Shown: in pieces, positions 595 through 47,387 of the stretch
Numbering within the stretch: the stretch's first letter is position 1
Layout: each line of letters begins with the position of its first letter
Origin: Flavobacteriales bacterium
GTDB taxonomy: Bacteria > Bacteroidota > Bacteroidia > Palsa-965
NCBI GenBank assembly: GCA_040377305.1
Contig: JBEIPA010000006.1
Span: forward strand, 4,177-68,176
Reading direction: 5' to 3'
DNA length: 64,000 nt
Program-made: the position numbers and the translations under genes
The notes under the pieces: generated by a model
Told to the model about the DNA's origin: nothing
The model's database searches: none
The model's input: the letters and a program-made list of their open reading frames with translations, nothing else

Positions 595-3069
595 TTATTT
601 AGTAATGATGATTTCACGATTTGAAACGGATCCATCGGCAATAACACGCATGATGTAATTTCCGGCTGCAACATGTGCAACATCAACCGCAATTACATTT
701 CCTGCTTGTGTACCATTCAATGCAGAGCTATAAACAACTCGTCCCTGAAGGTCTGTGATTTCAATGAGCAGCTTTTCTGCTGAATTGCTCAGCGCGACGT
801 TGAACATTCCGTTGTTCGGGTTTGGATAAACTGAATAACCAAATGTTTCGTTCTCGGAAATTCCTACACAGGCATTCACATTCACAGTGAGAACAAATTG
901 TCCGCTGCAACCATTAGTGTCTGTGTGACTGAACGTCAGAATTTGTGGACCTGTTCCAACAGATGGATCGAATGAATTTCCTGTAACACCAGGGCCAGTC
1001 CATAATCCCGGAGCAGGAGAACCAGTAAGCGTTACGTTCGCGTCATCTAAACAAGGAGTCATTGAAGTTGCCATTCCTGTTACAACAGGATTTGGATTCA
1101 ACGTTACGTTTACCGTGTCATTTCCTACGCACCCGAACTGGTCGGTAACCGCTACTGAATAAACACCTGAAGTATTCACTGCTAACTGTGACTGTGTGCT
1201 GTTATCGCTCCACAAATAGGTAGCGCCAACAACTGTTGCGTCGAGAACAAGACTGCTTCCACATGCAACAGTGTCACTTAAAACAACCATTGGTGGAGCG
1301 TGTACGATCACAAAAATATTATTTGAACTATCGTCCATGCACACTCCGCTCGAAGCAATTGCAATGAACTGATAAGTGCCTGTGTCTGCTAATGAAGGCG
1401 CACCCAAATCAAATGGATTTCCGCTTCCGATCATTTGCCACGCCGTATCAGATGGAGCTAAGATCCACCAATCAATGTTACCGATGTCGCCAACAGAAAT
1501 CAGACTGGTAGAATCTCCCGGACAAATATCAATACCACCTGAGTTGGAAATAATTCCACCATTCGGTGGAACATCTACCGTGATTGCAGCTGTATCTGAA
1601 GCCGTGCAACCGTTTGCGTCAGTCACAACAACAGAATAAATTCCTGTCGCAGTTACACCCAGTGTGTTCTGCGTACTATTATCGTTCCAGAGATAAGTAG
1701 CCCCTGCGGTTTGTGCACTCAATACAATTCCACCACACACTGTTGTATCAGGTCCGATATTTACTGCTGGCGGAACATTCATGATCACTGTAGTTGTGGA
1801 AGAACTTGTACAACCATTCGCATCGGTTACAAGCAACGTGTATGTTGTTGTTCCTGCAGGAATATCAGTTACCGTGCTGCCCGACATACTTCCCGGCATC
1901 CAGTCGTAGGTGTAATTCATTGTGCCACCCATTGCCGTTCCGATAAGCGTTGCTGTACCGTTCGGACAAACGTCTCCGCTATTCGTTGCGCCCGCCACCA
2001 ATAAGGTTGGTTCAGTAATTGTTACTGTTTGCTGATTCGTACATCCGTTCGCATCTGTAATTGTACACGTATATGCACCGGCAGCAAGATTAGATTCAGT
2101 TGCAGCTGTTCCTCCGGTTGACCACAGGTAAGTGTACCCGGGAGTTCCGCCCGAAGGCATGACCATTGCATCTCCGTTAGTTCCGCCATTGCACAAAAGA
2201 TTGGTCTGCATGGTGCTTGCTGTAATGGCTGTAGGCTCCGTAATTGTTGCGAACGTTGTGTCCATACATCCCAATGCATCTGTTACAACTACAGAATATG
2301 ATCCTGCAGGAACACCCGTGATATCTTCTGTTGTTGCGCCATTACTCCACGCGAACGTGTAAGGTGAAGTTCCACTTGCTACGGTTTGATTGATTGAACC
2401 ATCATTCCCGCCATTACAAAGAGGAGCAGTGAAACTTGCCGTTGAAATCGGCGGAGCATTTCCAATGCGGATTTCATCCCACACGCCTACACCTGAAGTA
2501 AAATTGTAAAGGTGCACGCGGCTTACGTCGTTCTGAGTAGCACTGCGGAAAGGAAAGCTGGTGTACATCAGAACATTGTTAATGTAAATATCAAACGTGT
2601 GGTTTGTCCAGTTTATGTTTCGCAGTTCTACATTGTACCAGGTGTTCAGAGTCGCTGCATAATCAAACGTTGAAGAAGACACAAAACGAATCACTCCCGC
2701 AGCCTGATAATAGCAGAATACGATGCAATTGGTAGCAGAAACAGAAGCATTTCCGGCAACTACATAATTGTGCGAAGAGCCGGTTGTTTGCGGACACATC
2801 CACCAGCTTATGGTATTCGGAGTTGCTGGAGTGAAACTCGTAGACAATCCGGTAATGTGTGTAGAAACACCACCGGTACCTTCAATGCGGTATGTTCCTA
2901 CCGCAGGATTGGTTGTAGTAACAGCTGCGGATGTCAGTCCGGCACCGATACTCCAGGTTGGTGTGTAACTGCCGGATTCAAATCCATCGTAGAATGCACC
3001 GGCACACTGCGCATTCAGATTCATCGAACAAGCCACAGCAAACGCGGCTACGAGTAGAGATTTTTTCAT
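595..3069 (-). CDS. T9SS-secreted adhesin with SprB-type repeats and type-A C-terminal sorting domain
   Basis: ATG at 3069 gives MKKSLLVAAFAVACSMNLNAQ signal. The N-terminal ~220 aa domain carries FYDGFESGSYTPTWSIG. Repeated ~80 aa modules with CNGG..G and TDANGC motifs follow (SprB repeat). The C-terminus VYPNPNNGMFNVAL...ITDLQGRVV is typical of a Por secretion tail. Confidence 0.8.
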   Translation of the reverse strand: MKKSLLVAAFAVACSMNLNAQCAGAFYDGFESGSYTPTWSIGAGLTSAAVTTTNPAVGTYRIEGTGGVSTHITGLSTSFTPATPNTISWWMCPQTTGSSHNYVVAGNASVSATNCIVFCYYQAAGVIRFVSSSTFDYAATLNTWYNVELRNINWTNHTFDIYINNVLMYTSFPFRSATQNDVSRVHLYNFTSGVGVWDEIRIGNAPPISTASFTAPLCNGGNDGSINQTVASGTSPYTFAWSNGATTEDITGVPAGSYSVVVTDALGCMDTTFATITEPTAITASTMQTNLLCNGGTNGDAMVMPSGGTPGYTYLWSTGGTAATESNLAAGAYTCTITDANGCTNQQTVTITEPTLLVAGATNSGDVCPNGTATLIGTAMGGTMNYTYDWMPGSMSGSTVTDIPAGTTTYTLLVTDANGCTSSSTTTVIMNVPPAVNIGPDTTVCGGIVLSAQTAGATYLWNDNSTQNTLGVTATGIYSVVVTDANGCTASDTAAITVDVPPNGGIISNSGGIDICPGDSTSLISVGDIGNIDWWILAPSDTAWQMIGSGNPFDLGAPSLADTGTYQFIAIASSGVCMDDSSNNIFVIVHAPPMVVLSDTVACGSSLVLDATVVGATYLWSDNSTQSQLAVNTSGVYSVAVTDQFGCVGNDTVNVTLNPNPVVTGMATSMTPCLDDANVTLTGSPAPGLWTGPGVTGNSFDPSVGTGPQILTFSHTDTNGCSGQFVLTVNVNACVGISENETFGYSVYPNPNNGMFNVALSNSAEKLLIEITDLQGRVVYSSALNGTQAGNVIAVDVAHVAAGNYIMRVIADGSVSNREIIITK

Positions 3070-3100
3070 GTGTTCGTTCTTTCTTAACGGTTTGTTTATT

Positions 3101-5107
3101 CTAATGCTGCAATGCAATACGGTGAACTACGACACCACTTGTTGTTACAACACGTAACAGATATATTCCATTTGCTTCTGCAGACAAATCAATTTGTTTG
3201 CGGCTGCCTTCGTTGACTACCGGCTCTCTGGAAGTAAATACAATCCGGCCCTGAGCATCGGTAATTTCGATCACAGCATCCTTCGCTGTATTCGCGAAAG
3301 TGATTTCAAACAAGCCATTCGTTGGATTTGGGAAAACTGCTGTGCCTGCATCTGCGATTTCATTTGTGGTAAGACAAAGATCTACGTTAATCGTAACCGT
3401 ATCAATTCCGGAACAACCGAGTGAATCGGTGTACGTGTAAATCAGGTTGTGCATTCCTGCGCCTGCTGTATCCGGTTCGAATGTGCTTCCGAATACTCCG
3501 GCTCCGGTCCACGTTCCTCCGGCAGGAGATTCAAAGAGTTGCACTGTAGGTTCGCCGGTACACACAAAATTCATTGCGGCGCTTCCTACGACAACCGGAT
3601 TTGCATTGATCGTAACATTCACCGTGTCCATTCCTACGCAACCGTTCGCATCAGTCACAATAACGTAGTATGGACCGCTCAAGGTCACACTGATCATTTG
3701 CGTTGTAGAACCGTCATTCCATAAAAAAGTGTTTCCTGCATTCTGCGCATCGAGCATTGCACTTGCACATGATGAGAAATCGCTACCAAGTGTTACGACT
3801 GGAAGCGTATTCACTGTTACCGTTGTTGTTGAAGTGCTCGTGCAACCATTTGCATCGGTTACCAGTAAAGTATATGTGGTTGTCGTAGCCGGAACATCAC
3901 TCGTAGCACTACCCGACATATTCCCTGGCATCCAATTGTACGTGTAATTCATGGTGCCACCCATCGCAGTTCCTACAAGCATTGCAGTGTCGCCCGCACA
4001 AACGTTTCCGTTGTTCGCAGCAGCAGTCACCAATAATGTTGGTTCAGTAATAGTTACAGTTTGCTGATTCGTACATCCGTTTGCATCTGTAATTGTACAC
4101 GTGTAAGTGCCGGCAACAAGATTAGATTCAGTTGCAGCTGTTCCGCCGGAAGACCACAGGTAAGTATATCCGGGAGTTCCGCCGGAAGGCATCACCATTG
4201 CATCGCCGTTATTTCCGCCGTTACACAAAATATTTGTCTGCATGGTGCTTGCGGTAATGCCTGTGGGCTCCGTAACAACAACAGTTGTTGCATTCGTACA
4301 TCCATTCGCATCTGTCACCGTACACGTGTAAGTTCCCGCGGAAAGGCCCGATTCAACTGCATTAGTTCCTCCAGATGGAGCCCAGCTATATGTGTAAGGT
4401 GCAGTTCCAGTCGTAACTGTAACCGTCGCCGAGCCGTTAGAACTGCCGAAACACGAAGCACTTGCAGAAGTTGAGGTGGTAAGAAGAGGAACATTGCCGA
4501 TGGTGAAATCATCATACTCTGCAGTGGCAGCCACAAGACTGTTCAGGTAGATGCGGTCAACGGTGGTAGCTGTTGGAGAACGGAACGCCCAGCCCGACAA
4601 TATCAAGACATTGTTCAGATAAATGTCCATCGTACGTGAAGTCCAGTTCATATTTCTGCATTCAACATGATACCACGTATTTGCCGAGATCGGGTGATTG
4701 TATCCTGTGCTGTTATAGAAACGCAGCACGGATCCGCTATTGAAATAGCAAAACAGAATTCCATTGTCAGTAGGCGTGTTTGCATCACCGATGATTACAT
4801 AACCATTTGCACCGGTAGTTGTATTCGAACGCATCCACCACGACATGTATGCAGGCTGAGCTGGCGTGAACGTGGTATAAAGTCCCTGATAAAAACCGTT
4901 CGAGCCGGGACTTTCCATAGAAAGGTGGTAGTTACCAACCGGTGCGCTACCGGAAGGAACGCTGTTATTGTATATCCCGCTACCTATTGACCAGGTTGGC
5001 GTAAAACTGCCCGATTCAAATCCGTCGTAAAACTGGGTTGCGCACTGAGCTGAGCTAGCCGTAAAGAATCCAAATACAAATGCTACGCTAAGTAGAAGTT
5101 GCTTCAT
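3101..5107 (-). CDS. T9SS-secreted SprB-repeat adhesin, tandem paralog of the previous gene
   Basis: ATG at 5107 gives MKQLLLSVAFVFGFFTASSAQ signal. It has the same N-terminal FYDGFESGSFTPTWSIG domain, SprB repeats and a C-terminal VFPNPTNGLFEITF...ITDAQGRIV sorting domain. An internal ~150 aa segment is near-identical to the neighbouring gene. Confidence 0.8.
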   Translation of the reverse strand: MKQLLLSVAFVFGFFTASSAQCATQFYDGFESGSFTPTWSIGSGIYNNSVPSGSAPVGNYHLSMESPGSNGFYQGLYTTFTPAQPAYMSWWMRSNTTTGANGYVIIGDANTPTDNGILFCYFNSGSVLRFYNSTGYNHPISANTWYHVECRNMNWTSRTMDIYLNNVLILSGWAFRSPTATTVDRIYLNSLVAATAEYDDFTIGNVPLLTTSTSASASCFGSSNGSATVTVTTGTAPYTYSWAPSGGTNAVESGLSAGTYTCTVTDANGCTNATTVVVTEPTGITASTMQTNILCNGGNNGDAMVMPSGGTPGYTYLWSSGGTAATESNLVAGTYTCTITDANGCTNQQTVTITEPTLLVTAAANNGNVCAGDTAMLVGTAMGGTMNYTYNWMPGNMSGSATSDVPATTTTYTLLVTDANGCTSTSTTTVTVNTLPVVTLGSDFSSCASAMLDAQNAGNTFLWNDGSTTQMISVTLSGPYYVIVTDANGCVGMDTVNVTINANPVVVGSAAMNFVCTGEPTVQLFESPAGGTWTGAGVFGSTFEPDTAGAGMHNLIYTYTDSLGCSGIDTVTINVDLCLTTNEIADAGTAVFPNPTNGLFEITFANTAKDAVIEITDAQGRIVFTSREPVVNEGSRKQIDLSAEANGIYLLRVVTTSGVVVHRIALQH

Positions 5108-5226
5108 ATGATTGTAGTTATGAAAGTGAAAATGCCGATCAAATATAGTAAATTTAGGATGGCACTTCACCAATGAAATAGACTTCAACACAGCGACCGC
5201 CATTTCAATATTAAAAATACAAATGC

Positions 5227-7157: not shown

Positions 7158-7669
7158 TGTTCGATCCAAAAGCAATCATTCATCAACTCGACCGGAACGC
7201 TCCTGTGTTTTTCGGAATGTTTCATTCTATTCCTACAGACACGCGTAAATGGAAATCTGCTCCGGAGAAATGGTGTGCGTTAGAAATACTTTGTCACCTC
7301 TACGATGAAGAGCGGGAAGATTTTCGTGCGCGTACCAAACACGTATTGGAAACACCGAAAGATCCAATGCCCGGAATTGATCCGGTGAAACTGGTGACGG
7401 ACAGAGATTACATCGGACAGAATTACGACGAGATGCTCGCGGGATTTATTCAGGAACGCAAAGCTTCTGTTGCGTGGCTGAATTCATTGACGAATGCAAA
7501 TTGGGAACAAGCGTACGAGCATCCGAAAATGGGTCCGCTACCAGCGAAAATGTTTTTGACGAATTGGCTTGAGCACGATTACCTGCACATGCGTCAGTTG
7601 CTTACGTTGAAGCATAATTATCTCGCACAATCGACAGGGATTAGTTTGAAGTATGCGGGTGAATGGTAA
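7157..7669 (+). CDS. DinB/YfiT-like (DinB_2) metal-dependent hydrolase family protein
   Basis: The start overlaps the upstream stop (ATAATG). The conserved W.ALEILCHL..E and H..YLHMRQL histidine-containing helices are typical of the DinB_2 four-helix bundle. Confidence 0.5.
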   Translation: MFDPKAIIHQLDRNAPVFFGMFHSIPTDTRKWKSAPEKWCALEILCHLYDEEREDFRARTKHVLETPKDPMPGIDPVKLVTDRDYIGQNYDEMLAGFIQERKASVAWLNSLTNANWEQAYEHPKMGPLPAKMFLTNWLEHDYLHMRQLLTLKHNYLAQSTGISLKYAGEW

Positions 7670-7672
7670 AGA

Positions 7673-7797
7673 CAGTGCGCAGTTGGCAGTGCGCAGTAAG
7701 CAGTACACAGTACGCGGTAGAGCGGTAGAGCGGTCACAGTTAGCTTGATGCAGCGTTACTGCGCACTGCTTACTGTGTACTGTGTACTGCGTACTGC
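7673..7797. terminator. bidirectional hairpin region between convergent genes, built from CAGT(A/G)C hexamer repeats
   Basis: gcgcagtaagcagtacacagtacgc on the left is complementary to gtactgtgtactgc...ttactgcgcactg on the right. It lies between the stops at 7669 (+) and 7798 (-). Confidence 0.6.
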
Positions 7798-9141
7798 TTA
7801 CTTGTCCGTGGCTTCTACGCATCTCACAACTAAAGCAACATCTGCAGCAAGTGCGTAATTATACTGCGCGCTGTTCTGTCCGGAAACTTTATAGCAGATA
7901 GCGCCAATTTTATTTCCGTACGCGTTGAATCCTGAATCAGGAATGTGGCTGAGTTCATTGGTGTCTTTCGCAGTGAAGATCCAGACATTGTAATCCGTGC
8001 CGGTGTTCAATCCGGAAATTGTGATTTTGTGATTCAGGGTCTGTGCACATAAAGGTTGCGCACCATTTTTTGCCTGATGTGTAGTAATGCACGGCACCAC
8101 GTAATAACGATCCGTATCAATGCGCACTGCAACTCCCTGCGGAAGTGTATCGCTCAAGCCGGTGATTGCAAATGCTGCGTTGCCGTCTGAACCGCGTTTC
8201 GATGGCGATTGCGCAAGCTGATACGCGTTGCAGGTGTACTTGCCATCACTGTCGGGCACATCCTGTTCATTCAGATTACGGTACTTGCCAAGATCCATGA
8301 TAAAATTCCACGCGGGATTATCCGGATCAGGACAACCACCATCGGGCAGCCATCCTCCTGTTTTAGTAATGTCGTTCTCCGTTTCCATGATGTAACGGAA
8401 ATAATATGGAATCGATCCTCCATGTGGTTGCTGACCGCACACCATTAATCCGTGATCACTGAAAACAATTTCATCATCGGCAAAATATTTTGTGTCGGAG
8501 AAATCGTTGTTCGAGCCCCAGCCGATTACAATCACAATGTGGTCGAAGTCGGTGTCCTCTGAACCGGCAAGAAAATCCTGCACGCCGAGTACAACCGGAC
8601 GACCATTGACAACGTGTTTCTTCATCCACGGAATAAAATTCTTTACCGTGTCCTGATCCATTCCCTCGAAATGCTCATGCGCGAGATGCAGATGCTTCAA
8701 CACTTCATTGGTAGGAACGAAACATGAATTATCTGCGCCCTTGGTGTTGTTCCATATCTGCGGCAACAACTGACAATAATATTGTCCGTTCTTCTGAAAC
8801 CAATTCCGGAAACCATCTTTGTCGCCGGGAAAATCTCCGCCGGGAGAACCTTTCGCTTTCCATTCAACACCGAAATAATTGAGCCACATCTTCTCGAGTT
8901 CCGGTGAAGGAGTGGTTGCCTTGTCGCCCCACAGCTTATGAAAATAATCGGCCAGCACCTGCCGCACCATGTACATGGGAATGTACTGTCCGTACAGCAG
9001 TCCCGCCGACAAAACAGAAGTTTCTCCGCAATAACCCGAAGCAGAACTGCTCCAGTTGTTGTCGTCGATGTTCCACATCAGGCGCGGTGGAATGTCGTTA
9101 ATGCGGACGTTGGATTGTGTGAGGAAGAGGTAGGCGTTCAT
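7798..9141 (-). CDS. papain-fold cysteine peptidase-like protein (C39-like / phytochelatin-synthase-like) with C-terminal beta-rich domain, no signal peptide
   Basis: GYCGETSVLSAGLLYGQ resembles the C39/PCS nucleophile motif (x)CG.A.L....YG. A later DHIVIVIGWG resembles the His strand. About 170 aa of extra C-terminal sequence follows. The N-terminus has no hydrophobic leader. Confidence 0.4.
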   Translation of the reverse strand: MNAYLFLTQSNVRINDIPPRLMWNIDDNNWSSSASGYCGETSVLSAGLLYGQYIPMYMVRQVLADYFHKLWGDKATTPSPELEKMWLNYFGVEWKAKGSPGGDFPGDKDGFRNWFQKNGQYYCQLLPQIWNNTKGADNSCFVPTNEVLKHLHLAHEHFEGMDQDTVKNFIPWMKKHVVNGRPVVLGVQDFLAGSEDTDFDHIVIVIGWGSNNDFSDTKYFADDEIVFSDHGLMVCGQQPHGGSIPYYFRYIMETENDITKTGGWLPDGGCPDPDNPAWNFIMDLGKYRNLNEQDVPDSDGKYTCNAYQLAQSPSKRGSDGNAAFAITGLSDTLPQGVAVRIDTDRYYVVPCITTHQAKNGAQPLCAQTLNHKITISGLNTGTDYNVWIFTAKDTNELSHIPDSGFNAYGNKIGAICYKVSGQNSAQYNYALAADVALVVRCVEATDK

Positions 9142-9241
9142 GGTGTGTTGTTGTTATTGAAAGGTTGATACTTCATGCAAACACAGCGCTCCGTGTTGCA
9201 TGAAATGTGCTATTTCTCGACTGCGCTCGAACTGACACATT

Positions 9242-10597
9242 TCACACAAACACCGCTGTCAACGAAGCAATGATGTCTGTCTGCTCTCCTCCGGCCAACG
9301 TCACCGATACAGTCGAACCTTTGAATGCAACGATGGTTTGTCCGCTCAGACCGGTTTGTGTAAACGGTTTTTGACTTGTTGCACCGGCCATACTGCCGAA
9401 TGGTCCATACTTGAGACCCGCTTGCGAGTGCAGCGTGATTTGTAAAACACAATTCGTTCCATACCACACACCGGTGTAACCGGTGACAGAAACGATGGGA
9501 TCAGTGGTTGGAATATTGATCGTCTGCGTTACTCCACTTGTTCCGCCGTGTTGCAATAAAGTGAATACACCGCTCGTCGTTCCCGGAGGCTGCGTACCGA
9601 AATTGTATGAGCCTGTTCCGGTGTTCACGCACTGAATGGCATTGAGTATATCGCCGGACTGAATGATCATTTGTGTTATTGGAGGATTACCCGCAACAGC
9701 AACAATTGCAGAGTCATCAAAATTATTTCCTGCAGGAGGATTCGCGAGCTGAGAAAGGATCATGATCTGTGCCTGCTCGAACTGAAAGTTGCCGGAGTTG
9801 AATCTCCATGTGAAGATGTCCAGGTAATTGAACCCCGAATTTACAGCGCTCCACACTTGCTGTGCGCTGGCGTTAGGAGCAGAATTGCCCGGCTCGAATT
9901 GTGCGCCATAACCAATAATAGCAGGCGCTATTCCGGCACTCAGATAGTCTGACAACTGACTTCCGTCGTAGAATTGCGGAGAGACGATATCGAAAGTGCT
10001 GTTAAGCGTGATTATTTGATTGGGCGAAGGAGCAAAAGCCGGCGCCATGGTCAGATACAATTTTTCTGATTGCGCATCAAATGCCGTGCGTATTGCGGTA
10101 AACAGAATTTGAAATTGTGAGTCCGTCATACCGGCCACATCACCTTCCCAGTCTACATCAATTCCGTTCATACCGTTTGCCTGCAAATAAGAAACGAGGT
10201 TGTTGGCAAATGCAGTGGCTTGCGTTTGCGGATCTCCACTGGAGAAAACAGCTGCCAGTGTCTGATTGCCTCCATAAATCATCGTCGCCAGAAACTTGAT
10301 GTTCGGATTCACCGCTCGCGCATCACGCAGCACATAATTCAGGTAATCCTGATTGCTCAGAAATTTAGTTGGCTTGGGTGCATCACCGAGGTGACAACCA
10401 TTTCCAATCTGTATGGTGAAACCACTTGCTGCGGGCACCACTTCAAAAAAAGCAATGCCGAGAAAATTGATGCTGTTGTAAACTTTGTACTGAATCAAAG
10501 ACTGAAAACAACTGTCGGGACTGTTGTAATTCGTTGTAGGTGGTTCATCTTCGTTGAGGAAGATCCAGGCGTTAACGCCGTAGGTGAGAGTGGTCAT
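9242..10597 (-). CDS. class III (hevamine-type) GH18 chitinase-like domain fused to C-terminal jacalin-like lectin domain; no signal peptide
   Basis: NGIDVDWEG matches the GH18 catalytic DxDxE. KLYLTMAPAFAPSPN and FDIVSPQFYD match the hevamine KVYLTAAPQCPFPD/FDYVWVQFYN blocks. The C-terminal GG.SG...VSVTGYTGVWYG...YGPFG matches the jacalin beta-prism signature. Confidence 0.7.
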   Translation of the reverse strand: MTTLTYGVNAWIFLNEDEPPTTNYNSPDSCFQSLIQYKVYNSINFLGIAFFEVVPAASGFTIQIGNGCHLGDAPKPTKFLSNQDYLNYVLRDARAVNPNIKFLATMIYGGNQTLAAVFSSGDPQTQATAFANNLVSYLQANGMNGIDVDWEGDVAGMTDSQFQILFTAIRTAFDAQSEKLYLTMAPAFAPSPNQIITLNSTFDIVSPQFYDGSQLSDYLSAGIAPAIIGYGAQFEPGNSAPNASAQQVWSAVNSGFNYLDIFTWRFNSGNFQFEQAQIMILSQLANPPAGNNFDDSAIVAVAGNPPITQMIIQSGDILNAIQCVNTGTGSYNFGTQPPGTTSGVFTLLQHGGTSGVTQTINIPTTDPIVSVTGYTGVWYGTNCVLQITLHSQAGLKYGPFGSMAGATSQKPFTQTGLSGQTIVAFKGSTVSVTLAGGEQTDIIASLTAVFV

Positions 10598-10772
10598 GGG
10601 TTTGGGTTTGGTGGTGGGTGGGTTCTAACGGTTTGCAAATATGCGATGGGCAGGCTTTTCAGCACTATTGTCAATGCGGAAGACTGATCTTTCGGCTACC
10701 ACTAAACTGTCTGCGGGCACAAAACCCCGCCTATTGCAGATGTGCTGTTACCAACTGGCGTTCTGTCCATGG

Positions 10773-11744
10773 TCATTTTATAATTTTTAATTGCTTGCCA
10801 ATGTCCTTAGCCAATTTTGCTAACGGTCTTCTATTAATTTCTGAATCTAAACTGTAATTGCCTAAAACAAATCTGTCAATTAAGCTTGCTGATAATTTTA
10901 AATCAGCAAATTCTTTTTTCAATTCATCTCTTCTTGACTGGTTGTAATAGAGAGATTTCAAAACTAACTCTTCAACAACATCCGTATGTTTTTCATAAAT
11001 CTCCTCAATGCCAAATGTTGTTTTGTGTTCATTAAATCTAGGGTCAACTACATTTACTTTTGGTTTTAATAATTTGTAATCCCTATTCCCTATCAAGTAC
11101 TCAAGAGCATTGTTTTGGTCAATGTAAAAATCAAACTTGATGTTTGCATCCTCATGATAAGGATGTATATGTGTAAGCACTGTAAATGCCTTACTGCTTT
11201 TTGAAATGTTACAAGTTGAACACGATGGAATTAAATTACCAAGTGTAAGAGAAAGAAAAGGGAAAGTTGATTTATTGTAAAAATGGTCTAACTGAAAAAG
11301 CAATTTCTTTTTTGCTCCGTCTTTTCCAATTGCTAATGTAAATTGAGCATTGCAGTATAGACAAGCTTTGACTTCGAATCTTTCTGCAAACCAAGATGCT
11401 TTTGCACTTTTTCTATATGCAGAATATCCAAACGCAACTTCAATTTCTTTTCTGAAAACTGGGTCAGTCAGAGTGTTCATATATGCACCAGTTGTAAACT
11501 GTGTAATAAGATTTGGGATTTGATCTGGACTAGCTTTGATAATATCATCAAAGTTGTCAATCAAATCATTTATGAAATTTTGTTGGTTACCAATTTTAAG
11601 TAACGCTAATGCAGTAAGGTTATCTGTTGCTTTGTCAAAATAGTTTGTCCAAGCTGCTTTATGGTATGTCAAATATTCATTCGCAAAACTTGCAAACGAA
11701 ACCAACTTGCCACTGTTTTCAACTATCTTATCAATTATTCTCAT
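10773..11744 (-). CDS. HNH endonuclease (PtuB-like partner of the upstream ATPase)
   Basis: CLYCNAQF...LDHFYNKS...NLIPSCSTCN gives the HNH arrangement C-x2-C...H...N...C-x2-C. It overlaps the ATPase gene by 14 nt. The gene is AT-rich. Confidence 0.75.
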   Translation of the reverse strand: MRIIDKIVENSGKLVSFASFANEYLTYHKAAWTNYFDKATDNLTALALLKIGNQQNFINDLIDNFDDIIKASPDQIPNLITQFTTGAYMNTLTDPVFRKEIEVAFGYSAYRKSAKASWFAERFEVKACLYCNAQFTLAIGKDGAKKKLLFQLDHFYNKSTFPFLSLTLGNLIPSCSTCNISKSSKAFTVLTHIHPYHEDANIKFDFYIDQNNALEYLIGNRDYKLLKPKVNVVDPRFNEHKTTFGIEEIYEKHTDVVEELVLKSLYYNQSRRDELKKEFADLKLSASLIDRFVLGNYSLDSEINRRPLAKLAKDIGKQLKIIK

Positions 11745-13719
11745 TGCTGCCTCTTTGTTTTATTTCTCTGCTTGATGTAAGTTCCCTTTCAAGAAATGCA
11801 ATTCGTTCATCAATGTTTTCAATTCTCTGTTCAGGGAATTTCATGTAAAACAATTCCAACAACTGATTTAGAATAAGCGGTTCTCCAACTAAATCGATTA
11901 CACTTTTCAAATGCTGTGGATTCCTGGGGACTTCTCTCTTCAATTCACTAATAACTTCTTTGATGATTTCCTTTGCAAATTCACCCATTGCACCGCCTTT
12001 GTCTTTCAGAAAAAAAGCATCGGCATAAAGTGAATGAATATTTGCTCCAAACGTTTTTTGCATGTCTTTCAATTCCGAAACTTTGCAATCTCCTGTAATA
12101 TCATCCTTCTCTAAGAAAAGAATATTGTTCTTAGGCAAGTCAGAAACCAAAATTGGTGAATGACTTGAAATAAGTATCTGTAACTTTTTCTTGGGAAAAA
12201 GTTTCGGTAAATTTTCATTCAACAATTTTATAAACGAAATCTGCCACTGTGGATGGAGTGTTACTTCAGGTTCATCAAGTAGAAAAGCAAGCTCTGATTG
12301 ACTTGCTGGAATTGTATCTGCCGCTCTTTTAAGTCGACTGAACATTGAAAGTAAATTTTTTTCTCCGCTGCTTAAACCTACGTACTCAATTGAAAATATA
12401 TCAAAGATGAATGTTCGTCTATCTTCTCCATCTTCCAAAACAAAATCATCAAAATATATTTTAATGAACTCCTTTATTACATCTGGTTTTGAAAGAGGAA
12501 TTGTGAAATCATAATTTCCTTTATATTTTATGGAAGGAGATTCAATAATGAAATCAACTGCCTTTTTTATTTTAGAATAAAGTGAACTCCTAAATTTCCC
12601 TGTGAACTGGGCTTTCTTTAAAAAGTTTTCAAGTGTGGTTCTATGAATTCTTGTTTTGCTCGTAGACGAAAGGAATAATTCTATTGTAGAAAGGATTGCA
12701 TTTGATTTTCCTCTGTCGCCAAAATTCATTCTGTTCTTATACTCATATTTCAATGCCCCGTAAAGGAAACTCACATACAAGTTTGATTCTAATTCCTTCA
12801 ACCTGTCCTTTTCTCTTAGGTCTTTTTCTTTTATTGAAGTAATTACTTCTTCAATTCGTCCTTGCAATTCATTGTCGGCTTTCAAAAAACTATCAATGCT
12901 TTCCCAAAACCTTTGATAGAAATCATTCAAGCGAATGGTTACACCTTCAATGCGATTCTTGAAAGGCAGTTGTTCGAATATTTGATTCGAAAGAAATTCC
13001 AAATTTCGTTTCGACTCAGCTGATTTATGAGCCAACAATTCACTCTCTCCCGATATGTAATAACTGGTCTCACCAATATTTAGAGCATGATAATCATCTA
13101 CAATACAATTCTCCGTTGTATAATCGTAGTAATGCCAATAATCCGTCTCCCAGGTTCTTGAACTTCCAGCAACACCTTCAATGTTTGCAATCCTATCCAT
13201 GTTCAATAACGGACTGTAATGAATAATTGAAAGGTGGTTTAAATGACTGGTGGCAATCTGTCCTGTATAACTATCTTCAACTTCATGGGGTTTAAGTTTT
13301 CTCTGAAATTTATCTCTATTATAATTTACCAACTCAACATTTGGGACTTCCTTCAAATCAAAATATTTGATTTCAGAAATTGATTTGCCAAAATGAATTC
13401 CCTTGCGATTGAAAATGAATTTGTCAGTGATAATAAAACCGTCAAAATAATAACTCGGTTTTGTCATTATGTTTTGAATCAGGATTTCTAAAAGAGTTGA
13501 CTTGCCCGAACCATTCTCGCCAATGATTGCCTTTATGTCCTCAATCTGCTCATTAAAAAGTTTTGGGTTTCTTTTTTTTACGCATTCAAGTCTGCCTACA
13601 ATTTCTTTTGTTTTAGGGCTGTCCTTCTCTATTGTAAAACTGAATTCATAGAGAGAACTCAAATTGAATCCTATCTTTTTAATATGGTTGTATTTGTTTA
13701 CCCAGAGATATAAGAGCAT
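11731..13719 (-). CDS. AAA_15/AAA_21 ABC-type ATPase (PtuA-like, Septu-like defense ATPase)
   Basis: Walker A GENGSGKST, signature-like LSSGEKNLL, Walker B FLLDEPEVTLHP and H-loop ISSHSP. The N-terminal IKKIGF..S.YEFSF is typical of AAA_15. It is translationally coupled to the downstream HNH gene. Confidence 0.8.
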   Translation of the reverse strand: MLLYLWVNKYNHIKKIGFNLSSLYEFSFTIEKDSPKTKEIVGRLECVKKRNPKLFNEQIEDIKAIIGENGSGKSTLLEILIQNIMTKPSYYFDGFIITDKFIFNRKGIHFGKSISEIKYFDLKEVPNVELVNYNRDKFQRKLKPHEVEDSYTGQIATSHLNHLSIIHYSPLLNMDRIANIEGVAGSSRTWETDYWHYYDYTTENCIVDDYHALNIGETSYYISGESELLAHKSAESKRNLEFLSNQIFEQLPFKNRIEGVTIRLNDFYQRFWESIDSFLKADNELQGRIEEVITSIKEKDLREKDRLKELESNLYVSFLYGALKYEYKNRMNFGDRGKSNAILSTIELFLSSTSKTRIHRTTLENFLKKAQFTGKFRSSLYSKIKKAVDFIIESPSIKYKGNYDFTIPLSKPDVIKEFIKIYFDDFVLEDGEDRRTFIFDIFSIEYVGLSSGEKNLLSMFSRLKRAADTIPASQSELAFLLDEPEVTLHPQWQISFIKLLNENLPKLFPKKKLQILISSHSPILVSDLPKNNILFLEKDDITGDCKVSELKDMQKTFGANIHSLYADAFFLKDKGGAMGEFAKEIIKEVISELKREVPRNPQHLKSVIDLVGEPLILNQLLELFYMKFPEQRIENIDERIAFLERELTSSREIKQRGSNENN

Positions 13720-13914
13720 AAATGTTAAGTCTTAATAATTCTTGCCAAGATGTTTGTATCTATTACTATTGTTGTGTTCTCGTTATACGCTTGCTGGTAA
13801 CGTTTTCAGGCTTCGCGTTGGTGGGCTTTTGGAACACTAAAGTTTATTAATCGCTCAAATGTTGATACTCGCACTATACGCCCACTAACGCAAAACCCGT
13901 GTTAGCAGTTGTTA

Positions 13915-15051
13915 TTATACCAATTCTACATACGTCTTGTCATTCAAGTCTTTTCTAATTATATTCCAATGTGCAAGAACTTGAGGAACATACTCTTTAC
14001 CATTATTTATGGCTGCAAGATATTCTTCTTTATCAATAGCATTTCCTGTTATATATTTATAGGTTGTCTCAAGCACTATCGCTAGTTCTCCATAGATTGC
14101 TTTTGAAAATGATTCATACTGCTTTGGATAATATGCTTTTAAGTATTCATCAACGGTGGCAAGAATCATAGTTTGTCTCACCCTCGGATGAGGATGTGTT
14201 TGGACTTTAGAATCGATACTTCTGTAAATACTAGACTCGACCATTATGCGTGTAAGAGTCAGTACTGCTAACGACCAATTAAATATTGTTCTATCGAAGT
14301 CAACATAAAATTCCTTCCTATCCTCGGAAACACTTTGTTCCCCTAAATGTCTTTTTACTGCATTTACTAATCCTTTACAAACAGCTAAGCAATCGGCATC
14401 CATTTCTAAAGTTTGAATAGTTAAAATATCATCTTCGGAAATGGCTTTAATATTTCGCTCCTCATAAATATTCGTTCCAAAACGAGTCTTAATGAAATCA
14501 AGATGCCCATTAATTATATGAGTCAATTCGTGAGCTACTAGAAAATCGACAGACACATCAACCAAATGCCTAGCATACGCTTGCCTAATCTTATCATTTG
14601 GAATAGCCATTTGATAAGCATTGTAGTCAATATCGCCACATGTAACCAAAAGATTTGCGTCTAAATAGTAATTTCTTATTGTTGGACTATTTTTTGTTTC
14701 CAAAGAAGTGTCTCCAACTTCACCTAACACGAGAGGATTCGAAAGCATTCTGAAGAACAGGTCGTATAGTATTACTACAGCCCCCGCATTTATTCCAATA
14801 AAATAAAATCCATCATTTGTTTTCGCGGCAATAGCATTAAATTCTGGACTATCTATAAAGTCAAAATGAATATTAGGAGGGCTCTTTATTAAGCTCTCGT
14901 GATTTCTACAACTCTCAATATATTTAATTGCTCTGTTTCTATAGTACTCAAAAACAGCAAAACTATCTTTAGACAATTTCTCTGTCTTAAAAAGGCCACC
15001 TTTGTCTTTAAAAGTTTTATCAAACAATATCTTTTGATCGTTTTCGAACAT
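13915..15051 (-). CDS. HExxH zincin-like metallopeptidase-domain protein of unknown function
   Basis: VAHELTHIINGH (HExxH) with a downstream EMDAD acidic motif. The gene is AT-rich like the adjacent ATPase/HNH pair and is 195 bp upstream of it on the same strand. Confidence 0.5.
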   Translation of the reverse strand: MFENDQKILFDKTFKDKGGLFKTEKLSKDSFAVFEYYRNRAIKYIESCRNHESLIKSPPNIHFDFIDSPEFNAIAAKTNDGFYFIGINAGAVVILYDLFFRMLSNPLVLGEVGDTSLETKNSPTIRNYYLDANLLVTCGDIDYNAYQMAIPNDKIRQAYARHLVDVSVDFLVAHELTHIINGHLDFIKTRFGTNIYEERNIKAISEDDILTIQTLEMDADCLAVCKGLVNAVKRHLGEQSVSEDRKEFYVDFDRTIFNWSLAVLTLTRIMVESSIYRSIDSKVQTHPHPRVRQTMILATVDEYLKAYYPKQYESFSKAIYGELAIVLETTYKYITGNAIDKEEYLAAINNGKEYVPQVLAHWNIIRKDLNDKTYVELV

Positions 15052-15161
15052 TTCGATTGTTTACATTATAACTGCTAACTCTATAATTATTCTGTATTTA
15101 ATAGAACTATCCCCTGCTATCCCAAACATTGTTGGCACAGCATCGCGAGAACTATTTTTCC

Positions 15162-16880
15162 TCACCCCCACTCCCCCAACGTCACCACCAACCCCTTCGT
15201 TCCCACCGGCAGCGGATCGTATTTCGAAGGAACTTCCGGCTGACCTGTTGGTGCGGGTGGAATTGGTCCTGCGTTTTCGTCGTAAGCGAAACCGTAAGCT
15301 TGTCCCATGGTTGTGCCGCGTGCGCAGGTGGTGGAGTTGGATGCCTGGATGAAGATGGGAACGTTGTCGGTGCTCTTCTTCTTGGTTTTCGGATCGGTAG
15401 TCGTCACCGCAACTGTTGCTGTGTGCATGAAGAGTGAGAATAAATTCTGCACCGTTTTTTCCGGATACCAATTGGTTTGTGTGCCCCAGTATTTCGAAGT
15501 GTAGCCCGCCGTTCCTGATGTGGGTGCGGAGTTCGCTACACCACGGTTCAACGCACTCACCAATTGGTTCTGAATGTTCAGCGCTACCGACTGCTGATCG
15601 GCATTCAATCCCGGTGCAAATGCAAACACGCCTGCATTGCCGAATGCCATAGCGCCACTCGTCAGGAACATGCCCGGCACTTTGGAAAATCCGAACTGGG
15701 CGTTGGGTGTTGTTCCGCTCAGTGTACTTCCTTCGAGCACAACAGATGTAATTCCTGCTGCTGTTGTGTTGATGGATTTAATCACGGTGTTATTCGGATC
15801 AACTCCTGCGCCGGTGACGTACATGCCCGTGAGCAGATTTGTAGCTGCCGGCAGCGGAGTGGTGAATGTCAGCGTTGCATTGCTGAGCACTCCGGTGATT
15901 GCAACAGGACCCGAACTTCCGGCGTACGACATGGTGCATAATCCGATCGGATTGAAAACAGTAAACACCTGCTTGTTGCTTGCTCCGGTGAACTGCAATG
16001 CAGCATGAGAAAGTTTTGTGTTGCCCGGAATCGGTTGTGCAGCAGTTGATGTTACCGTGTAGATGTCGGGCGTAATTGTTTTTCCACCGCCAACACCTTG
16101 TATGCTGAGTTTATTATTGGAGAACAACGTGGTGAGATCCGCATCAAACCATCCGTTCAGTTTGCTGTCGAGATGAAGCAACTGGTTGGTTGTATCGATG
16201 GAACTCAGGTAAAGTCCGGGATTGAGCAGTCCGCCGTAGTTCGTTGAATACTGCATATCCAGAAACGGTGCTGCACTTGCTCCGAGTGCGTTAATGAATG
16301 GTGCATACGCGCTGATGATCGATGCGCGCGTGACAGCTGCATTGCCAAGCGGTTGTCCTACGGCACCACCCTGATTGAGTGTGATCGTCACCGGCAAAGT
16401 GAATCCATCTACAGTTTGCACGTCAATCACTGGTCCGTAACCTGGATCTACGATTGTGAATTCGCAAAAAGAATACGGTGGTACTGCTGAGTTGGGTGGA
16501 TTCTGCACATTGGTTACGTTGGCGCCTTGTCCGCTGTAAGCGATTTGTGGTCCGGACGAAAACTTCGAATTATCTGCGATGAAAAAATAAATGCGTGCAC
16601 CGTCGATCTTAGCTGCGTCGGTAAACGGAGCAGGAATGTCGATCTGCACTTCGAGAATTTCATCATTGAGTTTGTACACCGGCAGTGTTCCGCTCGCTGC
16701 AGTAACAGGAGTGAATGTGGCAGTTTTGGGTTTGATTTTGCTTTTGCGGTTGGCGCTTATCGACAACATCTTTTGCGACTTCGTAGTAAACCCGAGGACG
16801 TAGATGGTGTATTTATCGGAAGGCAATTTCGTTCCGTCGTTCAACGCAATGGTGAGCGTTGTTCCTTGTGCAGCAGTCAT
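15162..16880 (-). CDS. GH64-family beta-1,3-glucanase-like (GH64-TLP superfamily) protein, no signal peptide
   Basis: N-terminal TLTIALNDG...YTIYVLGF, RIYFFIAD and C-terminal GQAYGFAYDE parallel the LPHase blocks TLPLTITNNSG..IWIY, RIYFSYG and KAYGFAFDD. Translation starts directly at the mature-like sequence. Confidence 0.55.
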   Translation of the reverse strand: MTAAQGTTLTIALNDGTKLPSDKYTIYVLGFTTKSQKMLSISANRKSKIKPKTATFTPVTAASGTLPVYKLNDEILEVQIDIPAPFTDAAKIDGARIYFFIADNSKFSSGPQIAYSGQGANVTNVQNPPNSAVPPYSFCEFTIVDPGYGPVIDVQTVDGFTLPVTITLNQGGAVGQPLGNAAVTRASIISAYAPFINALGASAAPFLDMQYSTNYGGLLNPGLYLSSIDTTNQLLHLDSKLNGWFDADLTTLFSNNKLSIQGVGGGKTITPDIYTVTSTAAQPIPGNTKLSHAALQFTGASNKQVFTVFNPIGLCTMSYAGSSGPVAITGVLSNATLTFTTPLPAATNLLTGMYVTGAGVDPNNTVIKSINTTAAGITSVVLEGSTLSGTTPNAQFGFSKVPGMFLTSGAMAFGNAGVFAFAPGLNADQQSVALNIQNQLVSALNRGVANSAPTSGTAGYTSKYWGTQTNWYPEKTVQNLFSLFMHTATVAVTTTDPKTKKKSTDNVPIFIQASNSTTCARGTTMGQAYGFAYDENAGPIPPAPTGQPEVPSKYDPLPVGTKGLVVTLGEWG

Positions 16881-35446: not shown

Positions 35447-36265
35447 CTATTCCTTCACAATCCTCTTCACCACTCTCCCCTCATTCGTCGCAACTTCCAG
35501 AATGTATACACCCGCTGCGTATCCGGTCAAGTCAATGCTCGGACTTTTTGAAACCAACACGGTATTACCCTGAAGATCTTTTACGGTAACAGATTCCGTT
35601 ACACACGAAGATGACGTTGCAATGGAAATCACACCCGATGTCGGATTCGGATAAACCTGAATCATTGCATCTGCTGTTGCAAGATTATTCGTGTTTGTGA
35701 TATCGGAAATCGTAAAATCGTCAACGAAATTCCAGCCGTACGTACCTGCGATGGTGCGGATGGTGATGTGAGAGCAATTGATCGTCGGAGTAAATGTGAC
35801 AGTAACAAAATCCCAGGTGAGTCCGGGAACCGCAGCAGTATCAATTGCCGTTCCGAATAGCGTGCTGTCGTTTGAATAACCAATCTCGAGCAGGTTAGCT
35901 CCGTAACCCGGATCTTTGCGGTTATAAAAACTCAACAGATAAGTGTTACCTGCAACGAGTGGCGCAGACAACTCCATTGAAAATCCGTCAGTGAGTGTAT
36001 TCGTAATATCAACTGCCAGCCCTACAAATTGATTTCCATGTTCAGCCGTGCCATATCCACAGGGGTTGTTGATTATATCCAGCTGATCTGCAGAACCGAA
36101 TGCGTAACAATCGTTCATCATACCGTTGAACGAAGCGTTTGTGATATTGAAATTGCAGTTGCCGGAGGTACTTTCAAAACTGCCGTTGAGGAAGGTTTGG
36201 GCGGTGAGAAATGTTGGAGTTGAGAGAAGGAATGCGGAGAGGGTGAGGAGGTAGGAGTGTTTCAT
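35447..36265 (-). CDS. T9SS type-A CTD protein of unknown function
   Basis: ATG at 36265 gives MKHSYLLTLSAFLLSTPTFLTAQ. The C-terminal QVYPNPTSGVISIA...GVYILEV is a sorting domain. Confidence 0.7.
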   Translation of the reverse strand: MKHSYLLTLSAFLLSTPTFLTAQTFLNGSFESTSGNCNFNITNASFNGMMNDCYAFGSADQLDIINNPCGYGTAEHGNQFVGLAVDITNTLTDGFSMELSAPLVAGNTYLLSFYNRKDPGYGANLLEIGYSNDSTLFGTAIDTAAVPGLTWDFVTVTFTPTINCSHITIRTIAGTYGWNFVDDFTISDITNTNNLATADAMIQVYPNPTSGVISIATSSSCVTESVTVKDLQGNTVLVSKSPSIDLTGYAAGVYILEVATNEGRVVKRIVKE

Positions 36266-36526
36266 GGTTGGGGGTTGGTGAGTCGATGATTGTGAGATGA
36301 AATTTAGTAAATAATCCTCCAATAAATTTAGAAGAGTGTGTTCAGGTTAGTTGTGGTATTTCTGACAACCAAATTGCTGTCTTCACCATGCGAGTAATTT
36401 GCGTCGGTCCGAATGGGTTGGACGTAGAAGGTGTTGATTTGGGAGAAGCAGGTGGTGATGGTAACGAAGGAGATGATTGTAAAAATTAATCTCATGAGAT
36501 GACTGAGCTGATAGGGATGTGTTCAC

Positions 36527-38386: not shown

Positions 38387-38390
38387 TGTT

Positions 38391-45836: not shown

Positions 45837-47387
45837 TCAGTTACGAATCACTGGTTTTTGGGCGATTAATACCCCGTTTCGTTCGAGCAGGAGAAAATAC
45901 AAGCCCGGATTGAGAGCGCTCATGTCAATCTTGTGCTGGTCAGAACGTAATTGTTCATCCAGTACTGTTCTGCCCGTGACATCACATAACCGTATTCGCG
46001 TTTGTCCGTTACCTGAAATCGGTGTTGCAACAGTTATGATATCCTGTGTTGGATTCGGAAACACACGAAGCAATTCTGTTTCACGTTCCACATTTTGCTG
46101 AGTCGTCATCACACATATCGCACCTGGATTCAGCGTAGTTGATGTTGCAACTGTTGTAAGCACAATTGACGAGTCAGCTATTCCGATTGTTATGCTTGTT
46201 GCAAGACCGGGCGTGACATTTATGAATGTATCGGAAAGTATACTATCGTTGCAAAATGCGGCACCGAGACTATCTGTCTTCGTAATTACAATGCTGATAT
46301 CGGTGGCGGTTGTTCCATCATTACGAGAGGTAATGAACATGTAACCTCCGTCATTACTGCGTACGATTGACGGCTCCATGCCTCCGTTAAGATCCAGATA
46401 GGCTCTGGCCCAAATAGGATTACCGTTTAAATCTATTCGCCCCATAGCAATGTGACCGGTGTTTGCCAAATCACAGATCATGGTATAACCTCCTGCTACC
46501 GGCACCATCTGTGTCGCGACGAAAGAACTGCCAGCCAGATAAGCGCGAGCCCACATCGCAGTACCAAATGCATCGAACTGATACAGCGATGTGAATATGT
46601 ATCCGGTGTTAATTCCGCAGGTAATAAACGCACCAATCGAAGTTTCATGAATGTCGGTTTGACTGGCAGAATTGGGACAACGGTTACACCACAGGAGTAC
46701 TCCGGATGAACTTACTTTGAGCAGTATGCCGTCATATCCCAGGCGACCACCAGCAACAAAGTCACCGGTTGAAGCTTCAATAATTGTGTTCAACTCAACA
46801 TGCTCATTCCATCCAAAAGTTCTGGTCCACATCAGGTTGCCCACACTGTCTGTGCGCACAATGAATCCTTCACGGTATGTGCCGTTGGGATCGGCTGTCC
46901 GTCCGCAGGCAATGAACCCATGATCGGATGTTTCCTCTGCATCGTAAAATAAGCTGTAGCGTAAACCTGGATACAGCATCGACCAGAGTACATTTCCCTG
47001 TGCGTCTGTTTTGATTAAACGTGCAGAAGAAGTGTAATCCATTGTCACACTGTCCCGATGAAACCACATTGTTGCAACGGCAAAACCGGAATCATGTGTT
47101 TGGACTACGGTGTTGCCATCCGTAATTCCTGCTGACCAATTCGATTTCCGATACGTCTGCACCCACTCCTGCGAACCTGTTGAGTCAATCTTCACGAGGT
47201 AGCCGAAATTATTGTCCATCGGTGGCTGCAACTCGGCATCGGCACAGAAAACGTAACCGCCATCGTAAGTTTTCGTCAGGTTATGATGCGCACGCTCTCC
47301 CTGCAATTCGAATGCAACAGAAAATGGCTGTTGCGCATTTAATGCTGCTGACAACATAACCATAAGTAGGATGTAGCTCGATTTCAT
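45837..47387 (-). CDS. T9SS type-A CTD protein, probable beta-propeller
   Basis: Signal MKSSYILLMVMLSAALNAQ. The C-terminal VFPNPTQDIITVA...GLYFLLL is a sorting domain. Confidence 0.7.
   Translation of the reverse strand: MKSSYILLMVMLSAALNAQQPFSVAFELQGERAHHNLTKTYDGGYVFCADAELQPPMDNNFGYLVKIDSTGSQEWVQTYRKSNWSAGITDGNTVVQTHDSGFAVATMWFHRDSVTMDYTSSARLIKTDAQGNVLWSMLYPGLRYSLFYDAEETSDHGFIACGRTADPNGTYREGFIVRTDSVGNLMWTRTFGWNEHVELNTIIEASTGDFVAGGRLGYDGILLKVSSSGVLLWCNRCPNSASQTDIHETSIGAFITCGINTGYIFTSLYQFDAFGTAMWARAYLAGSSFVATQMVPVAGGYTMICDLANTGHIAMGRIDLNGNPIWARAYLDLNGGMEPSIVRSNDGGYMFITSRNDGTTATDISIVITKTDSLGAAFCNDSILSDTFINVTPGLATSITIGIADSSIVLTTVATSTTLNPGAICVMTTQQNVERETELLRVFPNPTQDIITVATPISGNGQTRIRLCDVTGRTVLDEQLRSDQHKIDMSALNPGLYFLLLERNGVLIAQKPVIRN

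Follow-up and report, generated by a model that had tools for sequence, protein, structure and literature searches.

The window analyzed here is a 64-kb stretch of contig JBEIPA010000006.1 from a Flavobacteriales bacterium. Between 7.8 and 16.9 kb its minus strand carries six genes, the outer three of which are maximal open reading frames (ORFs) for predicted hydrolases: a papain-like peptidase, a glycoside hydrolase family 18 (GH18) barrel fused to a jacalin-type lectin domain, and a GH64-like protein. All three lack a leader for export.

7798-9141, minus strand: C39-like peptidase gene, ORF of 447 amino acids (aa)
9242-10597, minus strand: GH18-jacalin gene, ORF of 451 aa
15162-16880, minus strand: GH64-like gene, ORF of 572 aa

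Each of the three ATGs is preceded by an in-frame stop, 4 codons upstream for the peptidase gene, 9 for the GH18-jacalin gene and 6 for the GH64-like gene, so that no in-frame upstream start can add a leader. None of the three N-termini contains a hydrophobic stretch. The sequence-only reading of this locus had described three neighboring hydrolases without leaders and had named a missed upstream start as one way in which that description might fail; the description is borne out, and the stops rule such a start out. The same reading had set these genes against neighboring secreted proteins with signal peptides and type IX secretion system (T9SS) domains, and this also holds: the T9SS cargo encoded at 3101-5203 has the hydrophobic N-terminal leader MKQLLLSVAFVFGFFTASSAQ, and the products of 595-3117, 35447-36322, 45837-47387 and 61254-62975 bear Por_Secre_tail or CHU_C domains. 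Pfam finds neither domain in the three hydrolases. The Sec and T9SS routes are excluded for them.

The missing leaders might be an artefact of mis-called starts, or might mark decaying pseudogenes of secreted enzymes, an explanation to which we attach next to no credence. We found no point in its support. Besides the upstream stops, it has against it the intact frames, the invariant catalytic residues, and N-termini of one type in independent clusters that number from dozens to more than 100; the stops and the conserved leaderless N-termini together refute it.

Three leaderless clades of predicted enzymes

The 451-aa protein matches Pfam GH18 (PF00704) with 44.8 bits against a cut-off of 29.6 and, in its C-terminal domain, Jacalin (PF01419) with 33.9 bits against 22; there is also a weak match to the EndoS TIM barrel. 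The GH18 TIM barrel (residues ~7-290) lacks the chitinase insertion domain and is followed by a jacalin-like beta-prism (~300-451). The catalytic motif reads N144-G-I-D147-V-D149-W-E151, and all 31 sequences compared have D147, D149 and E151. Where DxxDxDxE has its first Asp, the window protein has Asn and the plant class V chitinase-related agglutinin has His (FHGLDLDWE). An AlphaFold2 (AF2) model (predicted local distance difference test, pLDDT, 84) retrieved many GH18 structures in Foldseek at probability 1.0, and its matches include chitinases, the BT1285 endoglycosidase and mannose-type jacalin-related lectins.

By sequence, the protein comes closest to chitinases of bacteria, to chitotriosidase and to class V proteins of plants (46 PDB profile hits at E<=1e-3; best 5e-10). 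The barrel had been called hevamine-type from the sequence alone, a classification that does not stand, as no hevamine or class III structure is among the 46 hits and the likeness to rice class IIIb chitinase is at the level of the fold alone. The best target-normalized template modeling (TM) scores of the barrel are 0.56 with the rice enzyme, 0.59-0.63 with the high-mannose endoglycosidase BT1285 of Bacteroides thetaiotaomicron and 0.60 with the bacterial GH18 structure 7z64. The protein resembles known GH18 chitinases and endo-beta-N-acetylglucosaminidases in its compact barrel, its lack of an insertion domain and its invariant DxDxE, but differs from them in having no signal peptide or lipobox, a C-terminal jacalin prism and Asn for the first Asp, and its sequence similarity to any solved GH18 is low. 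So far as is known, bacterial members of GH18 are exported.

The prism superimposes on Heltuba and banana lectin with a TM of 0.75 (Foldseek). It shares the beta-prism I fold with the mannose-specific jacalin-related lectins Heltuba, banana lectin, Calsepa and AcmJRL (TM 0.64-0.75, 18-24% identity), but unlike them is the C-terminal module of a bacterial enzyme. Elsewhere in bacteria, the most similar jacalin module is fused to GH85 endo-N-acetylglucosaminidase (P0330, P0344, P0349) or GH64 (P0363), and further fusions join it to a class-3 lipase (P0326) or a LamG-like domain (P0367); none of these six proteins has an obvious signal peptide. That GH18, GH85, GH64 and lipase fusions have this module in common points to a glycan target that they may share. 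Because of the fold match to BT1285, the mannose-lectin type of the prism and the GH85 fusions, the modeled protein is as plausible an endoglycosidase acting on mannose-rich glycoproteins as it is a chitinase. A further jacalin group combines a short helical N-terminal domain with the lectin module (e.g., P0398). The GH64-jacalin fusion P0363 was considered as a close relative of the window GH64-like protein and rejected, at 28% identity over 205 residues.

An exhaustive search of 1.84 billion cluster representatives returned just 234 relatives. The 120 listed GH18-jacalin clusters are all of ~451 aa and 58-96% identical across phyla, which implies strong constraint, horizontal spread, or both. 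The taxa represented include Bacteroidota (Tenacibaculum among them), Undibacterium, Chromobacterium, Desulfobacter and Pyrinomonadaceae (Acidobacteriota), and 160 sequences of Burkholderia cepacia fall into one cluster. None of the 120 has a leader: the start, M..L.YGINAWIFLNEDEPP, is already the first strand of the barrel (residues 7-13 in the AF2 model). Every relative with a named organism is bacterial, and plant lectins and chitinases resemble the protein only at the level of the fold (15-24% identity). The proposal that these are eukaryote-like enzymes, acquired by eukaryote-to-bacterium transfer, therefore finds no support. Judged by its members' sequences, this is a tight bacterial family, compact, highly conserved and uncharacterized.

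The GH64-like protein, like the GH18-jacalin fusion, passes the Pfam cut-offs, as its earlier assignment would have it: it matches GH64 (PF16483) with 53.7 bits against a cut-off of 27, over profile positions 2-174, in its N-terminal half only. When the family profile was aligned with the GH64 structure 9vp9, three collinear segments were recovered; the C-terminal motifs NRGV, W.YP and AYGFAYDE align as well, the last within these segments. E140 and D158 are invariant in 31 sequences and lie opposite E and VD of 9vp9; we take them to be the catalytic pair, presumably equivalent to Glu154 and Asp170 of the Streptomyces GH64 enzyme. Residues 126-173 show thaumatin-like similarity. A beta-rich region of ~140 residues (~260-400), which the alignment with the PDB GH64 structure skips, is read as an insert. 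The protein thus has the Pfam match, the Glu/Asp pair and the YGFAYD(E/D) motif in common with the laminaripentaose-producing beta-1,3-glucanases of GH64 and the thaumatin-like superfamily, but differs from GH64 glucanases in being leaderless, in its insert and in having no carbohydrate-binding module; its identity to solved GH64 enzymes is so low that a single-sequence search does not detect them. The substrate on which GH64 enzymes act is a long, structured beta-1,3-glucan (PMC7915573).

Almost all GH64-like relatives of at least 40% identity (P0001-P0057) start a few residues before the strand I.IPL.NQTGLD...Y.IYVLGF. More distant relatives (P0058-P0089) have signal peptides or transmembrane (TM) anchors, and some add IPT/TIG, FG-GAP/VCBS or RTX domains. 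Among the distant members, P0058-P0064 (P0059 is from Syntrophobacter) carry an N-terminal TM anchor, and P0085-P0098 have a basic N-terminal segment followed by a conserved LE(T/A)LE(D/T)R(I/V)VP motif. These are probably different export solutions within one family.

The peptidase consists of a catalytic domain (~16-230), a loop-rich, Cys-containing insert (~231-320) and an FN3-like beta-sandwich (~323-443). Its own match to Peptidase_C39_2 (PF13529) stays below threshold (14.9 bits against a cut-off of 24, E=0.042), and 20 of 33 relatives match the same profile (best E 6.3e-8). Cys38 and His201 are invariant in 33 sequences and stand in papain order, as is D229; P18, P19, R20, W23, G36, Y37, G39, E40 and D200 are the other invariant residues of the family. 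On this evidence a remote, family-level call of a Peptidase_C39_2-like papain fold stands. The AF2 model (pLDDT 85.6) has no significant Foldseek neighbor in the PDB, with weak matches to cathepsin K/L and staphopain. The protein shares with PF13529 peptidases the family-level Pfam matches, the Cys/His order and the weak cathepsin/staphopain fold matches, but departs from them in its sub-cut-off score, its extra inserts, its FN3-like C-terminal domain and the lack of a fused or adjacent ABC transporter. Its designation as C39/PCS-like thus survives in the first half only: no phytochelatin synthase match was found for the protein or its 33 relatives, even at E<=1. A C39 bacteriocin-processing peptidase proper was likewise rejected, since no ABC transporter domain or neighbor occurs in the window or at the related peptidase loci L003, L007, L008 and L009.

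The close clade of this peptidase is leaderless, as are the rhizobial relatives P0137 and P0138, and five cysteines outside the catalytic site are conserved in the leaderless clade. P0139-P0150 bear a Sec or lipoprotein signal and next to it, with at most a short linker in between, a DIPPRxQW motif; it is near this same motif that the leaderless proteins begin. The strongest structural matches of the AF2 model (m2499ec7a1a38) are predicted chlorovirus proteins, M1HG95, M1HFD0 and M1HU39 (Foldseek E 1e-11 to 1e-14), which are uncharacterized; M1HFD0 is annotated as 'PBCV-1 P7 disulphide-bonded domain'.

All three proteins look catalytically competent, and to judge from the relatives compared, leaderlessness is conserved across the family or subfamily of each. 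In other respects these are extracellular domain families, and signal peptides, lipoboxes or TM anchors are present in the distant relatives of the GH64-like and C39-like proteins.

The insertion and the genomic context

The gap between the GH64-like and GH18-jacalin genes is filled by a low-GC insertion, which holds the inner three genes of the cluster.

10625-15159, no strand assigned: low-GC insertion in the GH64-GH18 gap (GC 0.32-0.34), with HNH, ABC-type ATPase and HExxH genes
10773-11744, minus strand: HNH gene, ORF of 323 aa, in the insertion
11731-13719, minus strand: ABC-type ATPase gene, ORF of 662 aa, in the insertion
13915-15051, minus strand: HExxH protein gene, unclassified, ORF of 378 aa, in the insertion
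9172-9204, minus strand: hairpin outside the insertion, minimum free energy -27 kcal/mol, z=-2.76 versus shuffles, no U-tract

Synteny in blastn comparisons breaks at 10624 and 15160 against the related locus L002 (91% GH64 identity) and at 10609 and 15153 against L003 (79%), and the GC content of the insertion compares with 0.48-0.51 for the hydrolase genes. PADLOC matches the ATPase and HNH pair to PDC-M62A (1.8e-74) and PDC-M62B (4.2e-59), and more weakly to PtuA/PtuB, and so assigns it as a putative Septu-like candidate defense system, PDC-M62. In L002 the same slot (11710-15543) holds a PDC-S06/PrrC-like AAA_13 ATPase gene and two small genes, the order being GH64, 309 aa, 64 aa, PDC-S06 ATPase, GH18-jacalin. 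In L003 the slot (11689-13171) holds a 444-aa alpha/beta-hydrolase with a GHSLGG motif, lipase-like and with two internal TM helices, and the order is GH64, 444-aa protein, GH18-jacalin, peptidase, ParA-like genes. The different cargo in three related genomes, the synteny breaks and the GC content together identify the GH64-GH18 gap as a variable slot. Thus the defense block is an insertion in a hotspot and forms no functional unit with the hydrolases; a functional tie between them finds no support, and the pattern of hydrolases flanking a defense block is that of an insertion hotspot.

The 378-aa HExxH protein (motif VAHELTHIINGH, GC 0.34) is encoded directly upstream of the PDC-M62 pair and in the same orientation. 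It has no match in Pfam, NCBIfam or PADLOC, and may be an undescribed third component of the PDC-M62 system. The lipase-like slot protein of L003 was considered as kin of the lipase-jacalin fusion P0326 and rejected, the GHSLGG motif alone being common to the two.

It is conceivable, though very improbable in our view, that the hydrolases are anti-phage or abortive-infection effectors of the defense island, which would account for the defense cassettes found between them. Consistent with this, the GH64-GH18 gap carries inserted cargo in three related genomes, in two of them a PADLOC candidate system, and in Tenacibaculum one GH18-jacalin locus has nSTAND3/Mrr and STAND-type genes close by. Against it stand the lack of a PADLOC match for any of the three hydrolases, the GC difference between hydrolase genes and island, the mere handful of defense-model matches among 134 GH18-jacalin neighbors, whose contexts are mostly housekeeping, and the absence of all three families from IMG/VR viral contigs. 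The last result also led us to reject a phage origin of the families.

To characterize the neighborhoods, all ORFs within 10 kb were clustered for 54 GH64-like loci (in representative genomes) and 26 GH18-jacalin loci. In none of the 54 GH64-like loci (0/54) does either of the other two families lie within 10 kb, and the 26 GH18-jacalin loci show the same pattern. Pfam and PADLOC annotation of the 134 neighbors at non-redundant GH18-jacalin loci gave no family in more than two of them, and the most frequent neighbor Pfam families include no secretion, holin or phage family. The peptidase gene is solitary at L007 and L009. Outside this lineage each hydrolase gene, to judge from these neighborhoods, is a solitary gene that behaves as mobile.

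At L008 (7256-9177; GCA_964509075.1), a peptidase homologue of 404 aa (40% identity) is encoded 71 bp downstream of a leaderless 211-aa GH19 gene, of the endolysin or class I chitinase type. At three GH18-jacalin loci, L064, L066 and L067 (Burkholderia, Chromobacterium and Tenacibaculum), the called gene upstream of GH18-jacalin ends 540-850 bp before its start, a gap that could accommodate a regulatory region or an RNA element.

Within the window cluster, intergenic gaps do not exceed ~200 bp, and 332 bp lie upstream of the GH64-like gene. The hairpin at 9172-9204 sits in the 100-nt gap that leads from the GH18-jacalin gene to the peptidase gene and may be a terminator; a consensus terminator scan did not call it. 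A sigma-70 promoter scan of the hydrolase locus stayed at background level, and none of the genes has the Bacteroidota -7 motif TAnnTTTG upstream. Neither scan identifies promoters; of the earlier proposal, the hairpin after the GH18 gene stands, and the assignment of each gene to its own transcription unit is not confirmed.

Site of action and route of release

As a tentative interpretation, which we consider possible and hold short of probable, the three proteins are enzymes aimed at eukaryote-type wall glycans and leaving the cell by a non-Sec route that has no genes near theirs. They are independent single-gene hydrolases, and in the bacterial family or subfamily of each the enzyme comes on its own, with no signal of the Sec, Tat, lipoprotein or T9SS kind. 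Their genes have come side by side in a variable chromosome segment of this Bacteroidota lineage, which is probably Chitinophagaceae-like, with the Septu-like PDC-M62 cassette landing later between the GH64-like and GH18-jacalin genes. After folding in the cytoplasm, the proteins would meet eukaryote-type surface polymers outside the producing cell and act on them there. The GH64-like enzyme would cleave beta-1,3-glucan; the compact GH18 barrel, guided by its mannose-lectin-type prism, would cleave chitin or the chitobiose core of N-glycans; and the papain-like peptidase with its FN3-like module would cleave proteins. Release might occur by lysis of part of the population, or by a holin-type or other system encoded elsewhere.

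Action outside the cell is favored by the families to which the domains belong, by the presence of a lectin and an FN3-like module, by sister clades that are exported and by the dependence of GH64 enzymes on structured beta-1,3-glucan; the five conserved non-catalytic cysteines of the peptidase clade count in the same direction. There is, moreover, a precedent for the route, as holin/endopeptidase systems export chitinolytic enzymes in Serratia (ChiWXYZ) and Salmonella (ChiA) (PMC4259817, PMC10109510). This Type 10 secretion shows that chitinolytic enzymes can leave the cell by a non-classical path. Unlike Type 10 loci, however, the three hydrolase genes have no adjoining holin, spanin or endopeptidase gene: none is adjacent in the window or recurrent in the related loci.

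Several further results weigh against this interpretation. No export or lysis gene is linked: the 64-kb window has no secretion genes, whether of a type VI secretion system (T6SS) or an extracellular contractile injection system (eCIS), and no holin gene, and the intergenic gaps of the cluster contain no holin-sized or free-standing small ORF. The linkage of the three genes was seen only in close relatives of this genome. It is thus no conserved 'cocktail', and the earlier notion of a chitinase and beta-1,3-glucanase pair finds no wider basis. No recurrent neighbor emerged from the 54 GH64-like and 26 GH18-jacalin loci beyond within-genus synteny (in Tenacibaculum for the GH64-like genes), and the neighbors of GH18-jacalin include housekeeping genes, for MreB, ribosomal protein S2, DNA polymerase III alpha and cytochrome c assembly proteins. 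The window protein has GEQTD near its C-terminus, but the canonical GxxxD sugar-binding loop of the jacalin prism is not conserved in the family consensus, which reads GGSQTA. A literature search returned no paper on bacterial GH18-jacalin proteins, leaderless GH64 enzymes or this peptidase clade, nor any enzymology or localization for any member. Finally, a signal is missing from all 120 GH18-jacalin clusters, which span several phyla and include the anaerobe Desulfobacter, and a cytoplasmic protein fits this distribution at least as well.

The proteins could instead be true cytoplasmic enzymes, acting on glycans inside the cell, such as imported chito-, laminari- or N-glycan oligosaccharides or an endogenous intracellular glycoconjugate, with the jacalin domain as an intracellular glycan-binding module. 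We regard this as a serious if somewhat unlikely explanation. It accounts for the family-wide lack of signals, for strongly conserved N-termini that start straight with the fold, for solitary genes that sit among housekeeping genes without an export partner, and for relatives in anaerobes such as Desulfobacter. Bacteria have GH85-jacalin fusions, and among eukaryotes there are endo-N-acetylglucosaminidases of GH18 and GH85 that are cytosolic, and jacalin lectins of the mannose type that are nucleocytoplasmic. What speaks against it is, in part, the substrate: to our knowledge, long, structured beta-1,3-glucan does not occur in the bacterial cytoplasm. It is on such glucan that GH64 enzymes act (PMC7915573). 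In addition, surface polymers are the targets suggested by the lectin domain, by the FN3-like module and by those sister clades that carry signals; the peptidase clade is rich in Cys; and no transporter or catabolic genes are linked to the hydrolases.

The sequence-only reading had favored delivery by a contractile injection or contact-dependent system as one option. In this form the hydrolases would be orphan cargo whose delivery system, be it a T6SS, an eCIS or a different contact-dependent one, has its genes at another site in the genome; we consider this distinctly unlikely. Leaderless, enzyme-only proteins with a patchy distribution and horizontal mobility would suit such cargo, and anti-eukaryotic effectors need no adjacent immunity gene. 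But no Hcp, VgrG, PAAR, sheath or baseplate genes were found in the window or near about 90 related loci, a Pfam scan detected no MIX, FIX, Rhs or PAAR domains in the three hydrolases, and phyla whose secretion repertoires differ greatly have the same protein. The folds start at residues 7-16 and run to the C-terminus, which leaves no spare segment, N-terminal or other, for a packaging signal. The option thus receives no support from the locus or its relatives.

A broader view takes the jacalin fusions with GH18, GH85, GH64 and class-3 lipase together as a signal-less, lectin-tagged, pan-bacterial set, which would either work in the cytoplasm on an unrecognized glycan or leave the cell by an undescribed, signal-independent route used across phyla. 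We think this unlikely, if worth stating; the leaderless GH64-like and C39-like clades could share its logic.

If the enzymes of the window act outside the cell, as we tentatively prefer, they mark a release route for wall-degrading enzymes that standard secretome predictors miss, one common to bacteria from Bacteroidota through Burkholderia to Acidobacteriota and relevant to traits used against fungi and in biocontrol. If they act inside, bacteria would have an undescribed cytoplasmic glycan biology, represented by a GH64 enzyme and by a lectin-bearing chitinase or endoglycosidase. Either way, the interest of the locus lies in uncharacterized, consistently leaderless clades of GH18-jacalin, GH64-like and C39-like proteins, which are variants of known families.

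Two further features of the window were also recorded. A second variable slot adjoins the peptidase gene: only ~130 bp long in the window (7669-7806), it corresponds to L003:15947-18200, where ParA-like, 146-aa and 234-aa genes lie between the peptidase and DinB_2 genes. At 36527-41312 (minus strand), adjoining metH, a Type III restriction-modification pair lies in a second island of low GC (0.36-0.39): a 619-aa N6_N4 methylase and a 973-aa ResIII/DEAD helicase with an endonuclease domain.

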